Shown here in pieces: positions 1,846-59,536 of a stretch of 64,000 nt of DNA. The translations under genes and the position numbers were made by a program. This DNA comes from Patescibacteria group bacterium (GTDB lineage Bacteria; Patescibacteriota; Minisyncoccia; UBA6257; JACRHW01), in NCBI GenBank assembly GCA_028865725.1, contig JAGWJP010000002.1, forward strand, positions 168,050 to 232,049. Direction: 5' to 3'. Positions within the stretch are counted from its first letter, which is position 1, and every line of letters begins with the position of its first letter. The notes under the pieces were generated by a model. It was given only the letters and a program-made list of their open reading frames with translations, did not search any database and had not been told where the DNA came from.

Positions 1846-2376
1846 TTATGCTTCTTTCTCGATGCATTTTGCCCACGGCCACGACCAGAATGGGTGAAAA
1901 AAATAATTTAAATTTATGCGTGGCTCTGGTTCCGTACCATAACACATAAGAGCAATAATAAACACAAGAAACAACACCATAAAACCATACAATACCAGCA
2001 CAAACAAAAACAGCCTCGTGATCGTGTCCAAAAGCGATACATCGCGACCATCCCCTAAAAGATCCGCAACGAATATAGATGTTGCATAGTAACCTGCAAA
2101 AACCCAGAGCGCGATCATAGACCACATCGCCATAGAAGGCATTACGGGTTCAATGCAAGAAGAAACGAGATGTGTCAAACCTCGCCACTCCGCGCCCGCG
2201 CACGCCATTACAAGCGAAAGCATTGCATACTTGACCTTCACCCTGTGGCGCGACACGAAGCTCAACCAGTGAATCCAGCGAGGAATCTCGCCTGCGACGA
2301 CAAGCTTCTGATCATGCTCGGGAAGCCGATTCATGCGGACCCTACGATCCATTCCCTCCCATCGAGACGTTTTCAT
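1846..2376 (-). CDS. Hypothetical integral membrane protein
   Basis: 176 aa ORF with several hydrophobic segments; ends just upstream of the terminator; no recognised motif. Confidence 0.4.
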   Translation of the reverse strand: MKTSRWEGMDRRVRMNRLPEHDQKLVVAGEIPRWIHWLSFVSRHRVKVKYAMLSLVMACAGAEWRGLTHLVSSCIEPVMPSMAMWSMIALWVFAGYYATSIFVADLLGDGRDVSLLDTITRLFLFVLVLYGFMVLFLVFIIALMCYGTEPEPRINLNYFFHPFWSWPWAKCIEKEA

Positions 2377-2778: not shown

Positions 2779-4011
2779 TTACCTTCTTTTGCGGAGGAAG
2801 GCCGGTATATCCCAATGATCTACCGCCTCATCCTTAGAAGAATTGTTTGGTTTCCGTGCAAGAGTTGGCCGTACTGGTTCCTCTTTTATTTCAGGTTCTG
2901 GTACATACTCCTCTTCTTGCGCTGTCGTATCCACATCGAGTGCCTCTTCCCTTTCATCCTGATTATCTCGATTGTTCTTGCGCGATGTGGTCGTGTCTCC
3001 TCCGCCCATTTCCCCTTTCTTGTACCCGTCAAACCCAGTTGCAATTACGATCACCTTAACATCGCCCTTCTTCATGCGCTCATCGTGATAGGCTCCAAAA
3101 ATAACACGCGCAGATTGATCAATAGGTTCGGTAATCACCTTCGCAGCCTCGTTCACCTCGGAAAGCTTCAGATCGTCGTTGCCTGCCACGCTAAAAAGTA
3201 CCCCTTTTGCACCGCTCATGGATACTTCAAGCAACGGGGAATTTACCGCCTGCTTTGCCGCAGCAATCGCACGATCTTCGCCCTGCGCGGTACCAATACC
3301 AATAATAGCGGAACCTGCGTTTTGCATGATCGCTTTTACGTCTGCGAAATCTACGTTAATAATACCCGGTAAACTCACCAGTTCTGCAATACCACGTGTC
3401 GCTTGGTGCAACACATCATCAATCGCCTCAAATGCCTTGTTAAGCGGAGTATCTTTGTCGATAATATTAAAAATTCGGTCATTCGGCACGAGAATGAGCG
3501 TATCTACACGCTCCGAAAGCCGGTCTGCGGCCGCTTCTGCAACACGCATTCGCTGGATTCCTTCAAAAAAGAATGGTTTTGTGACCACCGCAATCGTAAG
3601 CGCACCAAGCTCTTGTGCCACTTCTGCCACTACCGGCGCTGCACCAGACCCTGTTCCCCCGCCAAGGCCGGCAGTAATAAACACCATATCCGCACCCTTT
3701 AATGCCTCGTGAAGTTCTTCGCGCGTCTCCTCTGCCGCCTGACGCCCCAATTCCGGGTTCATTCCTGTCCCTAAACCTCGGGTGAGATTTTTTCCGATGT
3801 GAATCTTCTCCTTTGCTTGAGACTGATGGAGGTCTTGAGAATCCGTGTTCACCGCAAGAAAATCAACCCCTTTGATCTGGAGCCTGCTCATGCGCGATAC
3901 GGCATTTCCTCCTCCGCCGCCTACGCCTACTACTTTGATTTTTACAAACGATTGAAATTCTGGTTTTACGTGCGGCATACGATTGACATGCACATATACG
4001 AATTCCGACAC
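2779..4011 (-). CDS. ftsZ: Cell division GTPase FtsZ
   Basis: Tubulin/FtsZ signature GGGTGSGAAPV; N-terminal IKVVGVGGGGGNAV; GTG start as given in the track. Confidence 0.95.
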   Translation of the reverse strand: MSEFVYVHVNRMPHVKPEFQSFVKIKVVGVGGGGGNAVSRMSRLQIKGVDFLAVNTDSQDLHQSQAKEKIHIGKNLTRGLGTGMNPELGRQAAEETREELHEALKGADMVFITAGLGGGTGSGAAPVVAEVAQELGALTIAVVTKPFFFEGIQRMRVAEAAADRLSERVDTLILVPNDRIFNIIDKDTPLNKAFEAIDDVLHQATRGIAELVSLPGIINVDFADVKAIMQNAGSAIIGIGTAQGEDRAIAAAKQAVNSPLLEVSMSGAKGVLFSVAGNDDLKLSEVNEAAKVITEPIDQSARVIFGAYHDERMKKGDVKVIVIATGFDGYKKGEMGGGDTTTSRKNNRDNQDEREEALDVDTTAQEEEYVPEPEIKEEPVRPTLARKPNNSSKDEAVDHWDIPAFLRKRR

Positions 4012-4079
4012 GAATGGTTATGAATACAATTTTTCGTTATTCATGCACGCATATCGTAGGTACCCTCTTCGTATATCTG

Positions 4080-5330
4080 TTAGGGAATAAAAACTTTAAG
4101 TATCTTTTTTATTTTGTTGACAAATCCTTTTTCAGATTCTACTACACTTACCACTTTTTCATCTGCGCCCCAAAAGAAAAGACCGGTTGCCGTAGCAAAT
4201 TCTGGACGGCGCACCATTTCTTCAACAGCCGCATCCTCACATTCCACCTTAAAGGGCTCACCCATTCTTACTACCATTTTTAATTCTGCTTTTACAAGGT
4301 CCGGGAGGATATCCATGCCTGCACCGCCCCCAATGACCACGACACCGCCGGGTAAACGCTTATCCCCCGCCGTTTTAAGCTCTGCTTTAATAAAATCGAA
4401 AATCTCTGAAAGACGAGCGCCGATAATTTCCGCAACAAACCTTTTTGATATCTTCCCTTCGAGGCTCGGATCCACACGGGATAGATCTAGCGACTCTTTG
4501 CGCGACATTTCCTCTGAGTTATTTGCAAACATAAGTTTCACACGTTCTGCAGCCTCCACAGGAATTTTAAGTCCGATTGCAATATCATTAGTAATACGAT
4601 TCGAACCTACGGGGAAAATAGATGCATGTAAAAGCTTCCCCTCTTCAAACACCGCGAGACTGGTTGTGCCTGCACCAATATCAATAACCACCACGCCGAT
4701 CTCGCGTTCATTTTTCGTAACCACTGATCGGCTTGCGGCAAGCGGTACGAACACCATTCCTCCCACGCGAATATTGGGCTCCAAACACTTTGTAATATTT
4801 TTGACCACCGGAGAAAATGTGTCGACTACCAAACTGTCTACCTCAAGACGGATTCCGTTCATGCCGAGCGGATCCTTAATAGCAACCCCGTCCACAAAAT
4901 ACTCCCGTGGAATTACATGAAGGATAGAACGATTCAAAGGCAGATTGATCGCTTGCGAGGCCTGGATTACGCGATCAATATCCTCGTAAGCGATTTCTCC
5001 GTCTGCGCGAGCTACTGCCACTACTCCGCGCGAAGGACGCGCTAAACTTTGGTAGCCTCCCACATTCACATAGGTATCTTTCAGTGCCTCGCGCGCTTCT
5101 GTGTCGAGCTCTGAACAAAATTCCACAACCGCTTTGCGCGCCTCATCCATATCAACGATCATGCCATTGCGCATCCCTTCTGATGGCCTGCTCTTTGCAC
5201 CCATAATATGCACCTTTCCGCGATCCAAATACCCCCATACCGCGCGTATGGTTGATGTACCGATATCGAGCCCCGCAAAACTATTCTTCATTACCCGTAA
5301 ATATAAAAAGAGTGAATTATTTGTTTTCAT
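4080..5330 (-). CDS. ftsA: Cell division protein FtsA (actin-like ATPase)
   Basis: FAGLDIGTSTIRAV phosphate-1 motif; actin/Hsp70-fold ATPase; adjacent to ftsZ; alternative start at about 5291. Confidence 0.9.
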   Translation of the reverse strand: MKTNNSLFLYLRVMKNSFAGLDIGTSTIRAVWGYLDRGKVHIMGAKSRPSEGMRNGMIVDMDEARKAVVEFCSELDTEAREALKDTYVNVGGYQSLARPSRGVVAVARADGEIAYEDIDRVIQASQAINLPLNRSILHVIPREYFVDGVAIKDPLGMNGIRLEVDSLVVDTFSPVVKNITKCLEPNIRVGGMVFVPLAASRSVVTKNEREIGVVVIDIGAGTTSLAVFEEGKLLHASIFPVGSNRITNDIAIGLKIPVEAAERVKLMFANNSEEMSRKESLDLSRVDPSLEGKISKRFVAEIIGARLSEIFDFIKAELKTAGDKRLPGGVVVIGGGAGMDILPDLVKAELKMVVRMGEPFKVECEDAAVEEMVRRPEFATATGLFFWGADEKVVSVVESEKGFVNKIKKILKVFIP

Positions 5331-16863: not shown

Positions 16864-17044
16864 ATGCGTGGTGCAACAAAGCAGTTCGCTCGCGCGTTAC
16901 GTTTTTTCAGTTGCTTTTCTCATCACCCTGGGGTCGAAACATCTGGTTCCTCGACCAATACCATCTCCGATACATACCGGAGTATCGCCTACTAGGATTG
17001 TCTTCTTCATAGGATGAATAAGAACAAACGTATTCTAGTTAAAA

Positions 17045-18752
<1,708 letters not shown>

Positions 18753-51292: not shown

Positions 51293-51348
51293 AACTTGAT
51301 TTATTGGGTCAAACTTGTTTATTATTGTAATACATCTCGGGCGACTAG

Positions 51349-51420
51349 TGACAGGGGCAGAAGGCTGTCCTGATAAGATACGCGAGGGTGCCAGTCGGCA
51401 CGCATGCGCGAAAGTCACAT
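51349..51420 (+). repeat. tRNA-Ile 5' half fragment fused to a GC-rich palindromic element
   Basis: GGGCGACTAGT...GCTGTCCTGATAAGA (acceptor 5' arm and anticodon arm of tRNA-Ile) followed by TACGCGAGGGTGCCAGTCGGCACGCATGCGCG; no 3' half. Confidence 0.45.
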
Positions 51421-51426
51421 AAAAAG

Positions 51427-51499
51427 AGGGCGACTAGTTCAGTGGTAGAACGCTGTCCTGATAAGACAGAGGTCGGAGGTTCGATCCCTCCGTCGCCCA
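51427..51499 (+). tRNA. tRNA-Ile (anticodon GAT)
   Basis: Acceptor GGGCGAC/GTCGCCC; anticodon arm CTGTC-CTGATAA-GACAG; T arm GGAGG-TTCGATC-CCTCC. Confidence 0.85.
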
Positions 51500-51523
51500 C
51501 CGCTTATTCCTGGAATTCAAGGG

Positions 51524-51599
51524 CTCCTGATAAGACACGCGTGGGTGCCAGTCGGCACGCATGCGCGGAGGTTCAATCCCTCCGTCGCCCACCGCTTAT
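51524..51599 (+). repeat. tRNA-Ile anticodon-loop and 3' half fragment carrying the same GC-rich element
   Basis: CTCCTGATAAGAC + ACGCGTGGGTGCCAGTCGGCACGCATGCGCG + GAGGTTCAATCCCTCCGTCGCCCACCGCTTAT (3' T arm and acceptor of tRNA-Ile, 1 mismatch); no 5' half. Confidence 0.45.
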
Positions 51600-51666: not shown

Positions 51667-52770
51667 ATGCCAGAAGAGGAGAAGCAATTGTTTAATGCGC
51701 TTGCCATTGCGACCGACAATGATTATTTTTTAATGCGCGCGCTCCATATGCGTTATGGCACCTATACGCAGGCATATCAATCTCTCATTACAAAAACAAT
51801 CGATCAGACTGATCTTGATGAAAAAACAAATGCCAAACTACACGAGACTGAAAAAGCTCTCCGCACACTTAATCCAGGCAAAGAATATGCGACTCTTATC
51901 AACCATAATATTACATTGCTCTTGCGAGAAGAAAGCGATCTCTACCCCCCACACCTTACCACACTCCCCCAACCTCCTCTTGGACTCTATCTTCAGGGCG
52001 ATATCACAGCATTCACGCGCAATACTGCTACACTCGGAATCGTAGGAACACGCACGCACTCCTCCTACGGCAAAGTGGCATGTGAACGAATCGTTCCGAC
52101 CCTCGCACGCTATCCCATCACCATCATAAGCGGTCTTGCGCTCGGTATCGATACGCTCGCACACGCCCTCACCCTCGCACACGGCGGCACTACCATCGCA
52201 GTCATAGGAAATGGATTCTCCTCATGGTATCCACATCAAAATAAGGAACTTGCGCATACTATTATAAAAAAGGGAGGCGCGGTTATCTCGGAATATCACT
52301 TTGCTACCCCTCCTCACAAATTCAATTTTCCACGAAGAAATAGAATCGTCGCAGGTCTTACTCAAGCAATATTAGTCATCGAAGCTCCTGAAAAAAGCGG
52401 ATCGCTCATTACCGCGCGGTATGCTCTTGAACTCAATAAAGATGTCCTCGCGATCCCAGGCGCAATCAATAGCCGCAATGCACAAGGCACAAATGCGCTT
52501 ATCAAAGACGGGGCGCTTGTCATCACATCACCCGAAGATATTCTCCAGTATTTTAATCTTACCGCCCTGCACGACCTACACGCTTACGAACTCACTCATC
52601 AAGAGGAAGAAATCCTTGCATTGCTTGACAAAAACAATGGAACCATGCAAACTGACTCCTTGTTGGCACAATGTGCACCGGAAGAGGCAGCCCAGACGAC
52701 TGCTCTTCTTACTGAAATGGAACTTAAAGACTATATCGAAATCTGGGGTACCCATATTATTAAAAAATAG
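51667..52770 (+). CDS. dprA: DNA processing protein A (DprA/Smf)
   Basis: GIVGTRTHSSYG...ISGLALGIDTLAHALTLAHGGTTIAVIGNGFSSWYP Rossmann-like DprA core. Confidence 0.85.
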   Translation: MPEEEKQLFNALAIATDNDYFLMRALHMRYGTYTQAYQSLITKTIDQTDLDEKTNAKLHETEKALRTLNPGKEYATLINHNITLLLREESDLYPPHLTTLPQPPLGLYLQGDITAFTRNTATLGIVGTRTHSSYGKVACERIVPTLARYPITIISGLALGIDTLAHALTLAHGGTTIAVIGNGFSSWYPHQNKELAHTIIKKGGAVISEYHFATPPHKFNFPRRNRIVAGLTQAILVIEAPEKSGSLITARYALELNKDVLAIPGAINSRNAQGTNALIKDGALVITSPEDILQYFNLTALHDLHAYELTHQEEEILALLDKNNGTMQTDSLLAQCAPEEAAQTTALLTEMELKDYIEIWGTHIIKK

Positions 52771-59305: not shown

Positions 59306-59392
59306 GCCGAGGTGGCGGAACTGGCAGACGCACAGGACTCAAAATCCTGCGATCGCAAGGTCATGAGGGTTCGATTCCCTCCCTCGGCACCA
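59306..59392 (+). tRNA. tRNA-Leu (anticodon CAA), CCA encoded
   Basis: Acceptor GCCGAGG/CCTCGGC; anticodon arm CAGGA-CTCAAAA-TCCTG; long variable arm; T arm GAGGG-TTCGATT-CCCTC; ends ACCA. Confidence 0.85.
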
Positions 59393-59536
59393 TGAGCGCA
59401 TGCGAATGGGGACGAGGAGCACGCAAATGTCTTGCGTGCGTGAGGAATCGAAAGCCGGACTGAGCGCACATGCGAAGGAGGCGGGGTCGCGAGTCGCCGA
59501 AGGCGAACTTGTGACCGATTCCCTCCCTCGGCACCA
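59393..59536 (+). repeat. GC-rich structured segment ending in a 21-nt duplicate of the tRNA-Leu 3' end
   Basis: CGATTCCCTCCCTCGGCACCA at 59516-59536 repeats the tRNA 3' end exactly. The intervening 120 nt contain GCACGCAA-atgtc-TTGCGTGC and TCGCC-gaag-GCGA hairpins and two GAGCGCA(CA)TGCGAA motifs. Confidence 0.45.

Follow-up and report, generated by a model that had tools for sequence, protein, structure and literature searches.

We analyzed a 64,000-nt stretch of DNA from a Patescibacteria group bacterium (assembly GCA_028865725.1, contig JAGWJP010000002.1, positions 168,050 to 232,049 of the forward strand), hereafter the window. In it, an intact tRNA-Ile(GAU) gene (M) lies between two tRNA-Ile pieces on the same strand, a relic of the 5′ part upstream (U) and a relic of the 3′ part downstream (D), each joined to a copy of the same GC-rich hairpin (E). 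This arrangement, which we refer to as a nest, lies within the 375 nt that separate a minus-strand ATP-grasp gene from dprA-topA; the neighborhood also includes methyltransferase and RelA/SpoT genes, and the 114-nt insert that carries the tRNA gene contains no open reading frame (ORF). Both the overall layout and the nature of the downstream relic, which differs from the gene’s end by a single mismatch, had been recognized in a preliminary description and held up here, with small adjustments: the upstream piece starts at 51339 instead of 51349, and the gene at 51428 (Table 1).

Table 1 Features of the tRNA-Ile(GAU) nest in the window
Feature	Position	Strand	Basis or remark
Promoter-like site (TTGATT, 18 nt, TATTAT)	51296-51325	+	Consensus match only; ends 14 nt upstream of U
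U, relic 5′ part of tRNA-Ile	51339-51379	+	Repeat comparison with the gene
E copy 1, 31-nt GC-rich hairpin ACGCGAGGGTGCCAGTCGGCACGCATGCGCG	51380-51410	+	Fold −16.8 kcal/mol, z −2.9
Leader spacer AAAGTCACATAAAAAGA, E copy 1 to the gene	51411-51427	+	Sequence
M, intact tRNA-Ile(GAU), predicted functional	51428-51499	+	ARAGORN; Rfam tRNA, 71.3 bits
Trailer and spacer CCGCTTATTCCTGGAATTCAAGGGC	51500-51524	+	First 8 nt recur after the downstream relic (repeat D2)
D part 1, anticodon-loop copy TCCTGATAAGAC, tRNA nucleotides 30-41	51525-51536	+	Repeat comparison
E copy 2 ACGCGTGGGTGCCAGTCGGCACGCATGCGCG	51537-51567	+	Fold −21.5 kcal/mol, z −3.9
D part 2, relic T arm, 3′ acceptor strand, discriminator and CCGCTTAT trailer	51566-51599	+	33/34 identical to the gene’s end
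dprA	51667-52770		Window ORF

The gene does not encode CCA, is followed by the trailer CCGCTTAT (51500-51507), and is identical in sequence to the inner tRNA of a related locus, L007 (L numbers designate the loci compared with the window). ARAGORN and Rfam report this tRNA-Ile(GAU) and nothing further between 51250 and 51700, neither ARAGORN nor Infernal at E ≤ 10 calls U or D a tRNA, and tRNA is the only known RNA family that Rfam matches at the locus, both at the gathering threshold and at E ≤ 10. The 5′ relic opens with GGGCGACTAGT (51339-51349), which corresponds to tRNA positions 1-11 and is unchanged from the gene, and closes with a perfect anticodon arm ending in ...CTGATAAGAT; between them, the D arm has decayed through three substitutions and a 1-nt insertion (89% identity to the gene over 51352-51378). 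The 3′ relic is without nucleotides 5-29 and 42-47: E copy 2 replaces nucleotides ~42-47, and the anticodon-stem 3′ strand and variable loop are gone. Taken in full, D folds to give acceptor-like, E, and T-arm helices (z −4.3), and the outer halves have the same acceptor stem as the inner gene. Since the D arm of the 5′ relic is destroyed and the 3′ relic is incomplete, neither can contribute to a tRNA.

The E element, an imperfect GC-rich palindrome within AT-rich DNA, folds into a hairpin of ~12 bp. Its 24-nt core occurs exactly twice in the window against 0.00 expected from 100 shuffles, and with three mismatches allowed the two local copies are still the only ones in the 64 kb. A 22-mer of E had zero exact matches in 185,579 GTDB species genomes (one per species, the source genome not among them), while JGI metagenomes, which likewise do not include the source genome, yielded one chance match on an unrelated GC-rich contig without a tRNA. 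With both copies in the 64 kb local and no exact match among the species genomes, a dispersed or mobile E is not supported in the DNA searched, nor is the earlier suggestion of a tRNA-derived miniature repeat. Nor did the DNA searched point to an IS200/IS605 or REP/RAYT system (repetitive extragenic palindromes and their associated tyrosine transposases): tblastn found no Y1 transposase in the window and both E copies are local. A connection of E to the tRNA-Leu(CAA) gene of the window, proposed earlier through a CGCATGCG-type motif, and to the insert beside that gene proved too weak to retain: of the six copies of the 8-mer CGCATGCG that the window contains (1.35 expected), three lie at unrelated places. 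We also found the alignment of E with the flanking sequences of the nest in L003 unconvincing as a sign of homology. E can be likened to GC-rich hairpins that lie within relic tRNA pieces of other genomes.

The preliminary description had named two outcomes that would count against it: an E restricted to this site, with the fragments explained by simple local duplication and random decay, or fragments that a tRNA finder does not accept as tRNA-like. E was found nowhere else in the DNA searched and neither fragment is accepted, and by this test the idea of a mobile E fails; the arrangement is still not a one-off local accident. A scan of the GTDB species genomes for two copies of GCTGTCCTGAT lying 58-88 nt apart returned at least 119 loci, and at least 25 of them pair a copy inside an intact tRNA-Ile(GAU) with a second one inside a fragment. 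These 25 listed loci all belong to Patescibacteria (Nomura-, Jorgensen-, Lipton-, and Paceibacterota, and ‘Saccharibacteria’) except L109, recorded as ‘uncultured bacterium’, and none of the other 94 matches listed involves a tRNA. At 21 of the 25 listed loci, the additional copy belongs to a 5′ half that precedes the gene, in most cases along with a downstream 3′ half; U matches in position the outer 5′ halves of L003, L007, L008, L027, and L063.

These nests share a precise anatomy. In 16 aligned relatives, and in ~20 species overall, the outer 5′ halves stop at ...CCTGATA (A37), and AGACAG (A38) opens the 3′ halves, which places the break at the intron position 37/38 in all 16; in the window, by comparison, the 5′ relic reaches position ~41 and the 3′ relic resumes at ~47. 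The common layout consists of outer positions 1-37, a small hairpin at the 5′ junction, hp1, in which U36 and A37 are paired, a P1 strand, the internal loop UUCGYUC, and a P2 strand, followed by the intact tRNA-Ile, the P2′ strand, the internal loop UCRCUG, the P1′ strand, and outer positions 38-73. The insert measures ~114-180 nt, the complete tRNA included. Relatives have 3-7 nt of the anticodon loop at both junctions, and L017 and L060 have near-complete loop copies there (CTGATCA and GTGATAA).

The leader and trailer around the inner tRNA form a helical shell that is conserved at the level of structure. The outer anticodon stem, hp1, and P1 are all present in the RNAalifold consensus, with compensatory changes at 7/7 P1 pairs, and so is a two-pair mini-helix inside the conserved internal loop. 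When evaluated in anchored windows, P1 is paired at 8-9 of its 9 positions in all 16 aligned loci, in at least six different sequences, and the distal leader-trailer duplex beats shuffled sequences in 14 of the 16 (z −3 to −9.7) at a mean identity of 56%. The tRNA-sense strand has 38 G·U pairs versus 17 for the antisense strand (p ~ 0.005, by our own arithmetic), an excess that argues for selection at the level of the transcript and not of double-stranded inverted repeats. Predicted folds of whole units take the form of a tRNA within a tRNA. A shell detector that combines the loop motifs UUCGYUC/UCRCUG with a scan for the P1 helix identified 18 tRNA-Ile nests and one empty shell, plus one stray match elsewhere in L027, and had zero matches in ~100 unrelated control loci.

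Expression signals were found around the outer gene. L082 and L100 (10/12 consensus matches each) and L059 (9/12) have promoter-like sites with an extended TG at 10-20 nt upstream of the outer 5′ half, and in L059 a terminator hairpin also follows the outer 3′ half; the promoter-like site of the window is weaker than those of these three loci. As consensus matches, these signals are compatible with a transcription unit that would span the whole nest.

The outer halves themselves range from perfect to heavily degraded. Seven species have two halves that match the inner gene at 100% identity, even though the acceptor and T stems vary between species. Those of L003, L036, and L027 are divergent but complementary or foldable, with ~14 compensated pair differences from the inner gene, and in ~14 loci the halves are decayed, truncated, or split by GC-rich hairpins (examples being L008, L015, L022, L047, L059, L069, L081, L083, L089, L093, L112, and the window). 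The shell duplex is kept in L059, L089, L112, and L093 where the halves have decayed, which suggests that the shell serves the inner tRNA and not the outer one. Taken together, the decay spectrum and the retained shell indicate that the outer halves are probably dispensable.

Several loci are also layered, and outer layers often have the acceptor type of a gene that is functional in some other lineage. The acceptor type GGGTGTG is outer or orphan in L027, L092, and L115 and inner in L063, GCGTGCG is outer in L003 and L007 and inner in L022, and GAGCGTG is outer in both L036 and L089. L092 has an additional, third 3′ half that is orphaned, L118 and L003 each show an empty shell next to the one with the tRNA, and in L093 the leader and trailer are repeated outside the outer halves. 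This mixture of young and old copies, nesting, and replacement by variants of other lineages points to recurrent insertion or duplication at the DNA level into a resident gene, whose function the inner gene would then assume.

Part of this evidence would be expected if the outer halves made up a functional interrupted tRNA, either with the segment between A37 and A38 acting as a bacterial intron or as a two-piece split tRNA held together by the leader-trailer helices, from which RNase P and RNase Z would excise the inner tRNA first. One transcript would then yield two tRNA-Ile molecules, or a tRNA-like RNA. The break at the canonical site in ~20 species speaks for this explanation, as do a P1 helix that covaries and brings both junctions together, the pairing of U36 and A37 in hp1, and selection of the structure on the sense strand; the compensated acceptor and T stems of L003, L036, and L027, the perfect halves of seven nests, the promoter-like site and terminator flanking the outer gene, and the predicted tRNA-within-tRNA folds all lean the same way. 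However, the junctions do not form the bulge-helix-bulge (BHB) motif, in which a 4-bp helix between nt 32-35 and the intron stands between two 3-nt bulges with the splice sites: full pairing (4/4) of the central helix was seen in 1 of 16 loci and of the second helix in 0 of 16, a test that rules out an archaeal-type BHB intron geometry. No group I or other ribozyme was matched either, Rfam at E ≤ 10 returning tRNA alone on the window locus and L048, and the inserts span 150-180 nt with a 73-nt tRNA counted in. In more than half of the loci, the window included, decay, truncation, or interruption has affected the halves while the shell helix is kept, and a second class of nests, split in the D loop and containing a 13-bp covarying helix (L062, L092, L109), would leave a non-canonical D loop once the insert was removed. 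We also know of no bacterial enzyme that cuts such junctions, and overall we consider a functional interrupted tRNA, conceivable in the well-preserved species, unlikely. The split tRNA put forward in the preliminary description, like an intron-containing one, captures the geometry of the outer gene in relatives, which is broken at 37/38, but not the window, whose halves are too decayed to function and which has no BHB motif; the permuted tRNA that was offered beside it does not fit the order found, namely 5′ half, gene, 3′ half.

In the window itself, a direct repeat of 43-48 nt made up of the anticodon-loop piece and E stands on both sides of the 114-nt gene-bearing segment. In the 48-nt register, the two copies are 92% identical and lie 157 nt apart from start to start, with two mismatches over 43 nt before they diverge; the 43-nt repeat and the 34-nt repeat of the gene’s 3′ end are direct repeats of part of the tRNA such as an att site would have. 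The arrangement may be read as an insertion with target duplication or, equally, as a tandem duplication followed by a 65-nt deletion. The second option underlies a purely local explanation, in which ordinary duplication, deletion, and random decay produced the locus, E arose or landed before the duplication, and the likeness to nests is a coincidence. The window can indeed be derived from a doubled block (U including E, spacer, and M) if 65 nt, running from where E stops to tRNA position 47, were then deleted: subtracting the 92-nt spacing from the 157-nt one leaves exactly the length of the spacer and tRNA positions 1-46 combined, and there is CG microhomology at the junction. In line with such an origin, the 3′ relic keeps the gene’s own 8-nt trailer, E was found here alone within the collections searched, and the doubled leader and trailer of L093 are as expected from tandem duplication. 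This explanation nonetheless leaves unaccounted for the exact 37/38 breaks in ~20 species, the covarying flanks with their conserved loop motif and sense-strand G·U bias, and the outer layers that carry the acceptor stem of another lineage, and we judge it decidedly unlikely.

The same duplications could also be the attL/attR scars of a tyrosine-integrase element that targeted the tRNA-Ile anticodon stem-loop and was later deleted to a stub. An anticodon loop with its 5-bp stem is a classical core recognized by integrases, near-complete loop copies stand at both junctions of L017 and L060, and a T-loop-type duplication is present at tRNA-Leu(CAA) in the same window. An archaeal precedent exists in Caldiarchaeum subterraneum, where a 5′ fragment of tRNA-Thr left by a mobile element lies beside a recombinase element (PMC3293823). 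However, no integrase was found among the ORF families shared by the 8-kb loci or among the window genes checked, a comparison made without a systematic integrase search. The insert, at 114-180 nt, is equally compact in form across many species and carries a whole tRNA rather than a 3′ part, and one would not expect att arms to have helices selected at the RNA level. An origin from a phage or plasmid was rejected as well, given that no IMG/VR contig carries the 5′ part of the tRNA. Integrase scars are therefore very unlikely in our assessment, although among the explanations first proposed for the locus, that of an integrative-element scar comes closest to what the comparison indicates, in that an event did target tRNA-Ile: what separates the two is the missing integrase, the small insert with its complete tRNA-Ile, and the flanking RNA helices.

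Orthologous loci, defined as contigs encoding DprA homologs, retain the synteny pilin / methyltransferase / ATP-grasp / dprA / topA and provide a closer view of this site. In L003/L004 (L003 being from GCA_023245015.1), two independent assemblies with a DprA 57% identical to that of the window, the order is 5′ half, shell, tRNA-Ile, shell, 3′ half; the nest is on the opposite strand relative to dprA, its break falls after ...CCTGATA and before AGACAG, and its outer acceptor stem differs from the inner one yet is self-complementary (GCGTGCG / CGCACAC). L007 has a decayed nest of the same outer type (GCGTGCG), L008 has a 5′ half alone, split by GC-rich hairpins, and L006, L010, and L134 have a plain tRNA-Ile with no halves; altogether, relics are present at 4 of 7 dprA-adjacent tRNA-Ile loci. 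The GGGCGAC-type relics of the window must, on this comparison of acceptor types, presumably derive from a separate and later event than the GCGTGCG-type relics of L003 and L007. At this ATP-grasp/dprA locus, tRNA-Ile lies on the minus strand in L003, L006, L007, and L008 and on the plus strand in L010, L134, and the window, and these opposite directions suggest that the gene was inverted or re-inserted repeatedly at this site. L006 additionally contains an ORF for an IS200-like Y1 (HUH) transposase (2420-2995) between tRNA-Ile and dprA, bounded on both sides by the hairpin CAACTATGGTAG..CTACCATAGTTG.

The reading we favor, and to which we give about an even chance, is that a nest arises when a hairpin-flanked replacement tRNA-Ile is inserted into, or duplicated within, a resident gene whose old halves persist as co-transcribed relics. 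A resident tRNA-Ile(GAU) would have been interrupted by, or duplicated around, a short segment bearing a complete tRNA-Ile, so that in the window a functional gene now stands between two remnants, front and back, of an older copy. Where relatives are well preserved, the insert sits exactly between outer A37 and A38, and P1, the loop UUCGYUC/UCRCUG, and P2 enclose the inner tRNA and would be kept by selection on the transcript. The entire unit would be transcribed from the promoter of the old gene, and RNase P together with 3′-end processing would release the inner tRNA alone, so that the outer pieces would be by-products free to decay. The shell would most likely act as a processing and insulating stem that stops the inner tRNA from mispairing with the identical outer halves. 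In the window variant, E and 12 nt of the anticodon loop would have been copied to both sides of the gene. Candidate makers of nests are recombination through the invariant tRNA interior, which would provide homology arms, or a hairpin-specific recombinase or transposase.

Several observations weigh against this reading. The window copy has no standard shell: P1/P2 and the internal loop find no match in it, and its leader-trailer pairing is weak (inverted repeat I1, 75% complementary with the acceptor stem included). Its 43-nt flanking repeat is, as noted above, explained just as well by duplication and deletion. No nest-making enzyme emerged, since ORF clustering across 30 loci (all-versus-all, then Pfam) gave housekeeping families, the recurrent neighbors of nests being prfA, L31, L25, ATP synthase genes, or dprA-topA. 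A Y1 transposase is found near L006 alone, with no tblastn match in the window or the other sampled loci. Position 37/38 is moreover the canonical site of spliced tRNA introns. Finally, in the seven perfect nests, the halves and the inner gene have species-specific changes of the T arm and variable loop in common (e.g., L082) while the spacers have diverged, a combination that implies gene conversion, a very recent origin, or selection acting on the halves. The inner T arm of L003 is like its outer copy and unlike those of relatives, which favors gene conversion; selection on perfect halves would instead favor a function for them. On balance, we interpret the window as a degraded, later variant of the nested tRNA layout, its local feature being a relic of modest importance.

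A more far-reaching interpretation, which we regard as possible but doubtful, is that nests represent a new bacterial genetic element. In one form, this would be an intron or split tRNA at 37/38 that is resolved by end processing of the embedded tRNA and a joining step, without ribozyme or BHB motif. In the other, it would be a self-propagating, hairpin-enclosed ‘tRNA replacement cassette’ that inserts into a resident copy of the same tRNA, becomes indispensable, and spreads without an enzyme gene of its own, e.g., by transformation with the tRNA interior as homology arms. If either form were true, the window locus would be a burnt-out copy of it.

Similar nests exist for tRNA-Asp, tRNA-Lys, and tRNA-Val. 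In L092, an intact tRNA-Val(GAC) (2075-2149, minus strand) has upstream of it a decayed tRNA-Val 5′ piece with a GC-rich D-loop insert, which indicates that relic halves are not confined to tRNA-Ile. The ‘Saccharibacteria’ contig L115 contains several disrupted or nested tRNAs (1600-2440 and 3880-4330): tRNA-Asp and tRNA-Lys each have their own 5′ relic upstream and are flanked by a CCCCG.. arm, with a ..CGGGG arm downstream of tRNA-Asp, the hairpin CAAAAAGCAAATGTCTTTGCTTTTGGC + GGGCGATTACAT is present three times, and a tRNA at ~1975-2345 has an insert of ~290 nt after the anticodon that is possibly a group I intron. Another hairpin, TCCGCCCGG(A/C)TGAA(C/G)CCGTTCGGACGG, is common to L093 (617-643) and L109 and lies in relic or neighboring tRNA sequence, namely the T arm of the outer 3′ half in L093 and the D region of a tRNA-Ala-like sequence downstream of tRNA-Ile in L109; from its placement, it looks like a mobile mini-hairpin of tRNA genes.

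Elsewhere in the window, tRNA-Leu(CAA) (59306-59392) is followed by a 123-nt GC-rich insert (59393-59515) and then by an exact 21-nt copy of the tRNA end, starting at the T loop (CGATTCCCTCCCTCGGCACCA, 59516-59536). An insert related to it that shares AGGAATCGAAAGCC, ends in ..TGAC, and abuts an orphan tRNA 3′ end is found after the tRNA-Ile nest of L015 (~440-598), and the resemblance suggests that both may belong to a family of small insertions targeting the T loop. The 16S rRNA gene of the window (17041-18752, minus strand) spans 1712 nt against the 1533 positions of the model, which implies an insertion of ~180 nt, and has no adjacent 23S gene. A 16S insertion without an adjacent 23S gene is typical of Patescibacteria. 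Introns in rRNA are known in the candidate phyla radiation (CPR) (PMC10714607).

For the window alone, the consequence is modest: the fragments are, in all probability, non-functional relics, and the enclosed tRNA-Ile gene is normal. The wider family is conserved, structured, and, apparently, undescribed, as our full-text literature search found no nested, split, or interrupted tRNA genes in Patescibacteria/CPR. To our knowledge, protein-spliced introns and split tRNA genes are regarded as archaeal or eukaryotic, and the known bacterial tRNA introns are all self-splicing ribozymes. A bacterial tRNA gene that is recurrently broken at 37/38, with complementary sequences joining the parts, bears on the debate over the origin of tRNA introns and split tRNAs. 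Nests also present, in a natural system, many stages of the disruption, replacement, and decay of genes, their loci can mislead tRNA annotation and the prediction of integration sites in Patescibacteria genomes, and the leader-trailer shell is a candidate new structured RNA family.

Among known systems, nests resemble archaeal tRNAs with introns, and split tRNAs such as those of Nanoarchaeum equitans, in the break at 37/38 and in the complementary sequence beside both halves, and the second nest class resembles non-canonical archaeal introns in its break within the D loop. Unlike these, nests are bacterial, do not have the BHB motif, and enclose a complete working copy of the same tRNA in the intervening DNA; their halves are adjacent, co-oriented, and often decayed, which argues that they are not required, in contrast to archaeal split tRNAs. 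With the disruption of tRNA genes by mobile elements, nests share the partial tRNA copies flanking an insert, the anticodon loop as target, the intact gene beside a displaced fragment, and the recurrent, lineage-specific nature of the events. They differ in having no recombinase gene, in displacing both 5′ and 3′ fragments, in the short insert (~114-180 nt) with a full tRNA, and in flanks that form an RNA helix covarying across the phylum. The E element is reminiscent of REP sequences or miniature inverted-repeat transposable elements as a 31-nt GC-rich palindrome in AT-rich DNA, and the TCCGCCCGG..CCGTTCGGACGG hairpin recurs in two genomes; however, E has two copies from one local duplication, no dispersed family was seen, and neither a GTAG-type motif nor, in the window, a RAYT was found. 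The shell itself is most like the leader-trailer stems of bacterial rRNA that are RNase III substrates, in which a long helix with conserved internal loops encloses a stable RNA and the transcribed strand has more G·U pairs than the antisense strand. It departs from them in enclosing a single tRNA that itself lies inside the anticodon loop of a second copy, and by analogy with these stems its cleavage by RNase III would be a hypothetical counterpart of rRNA processing.

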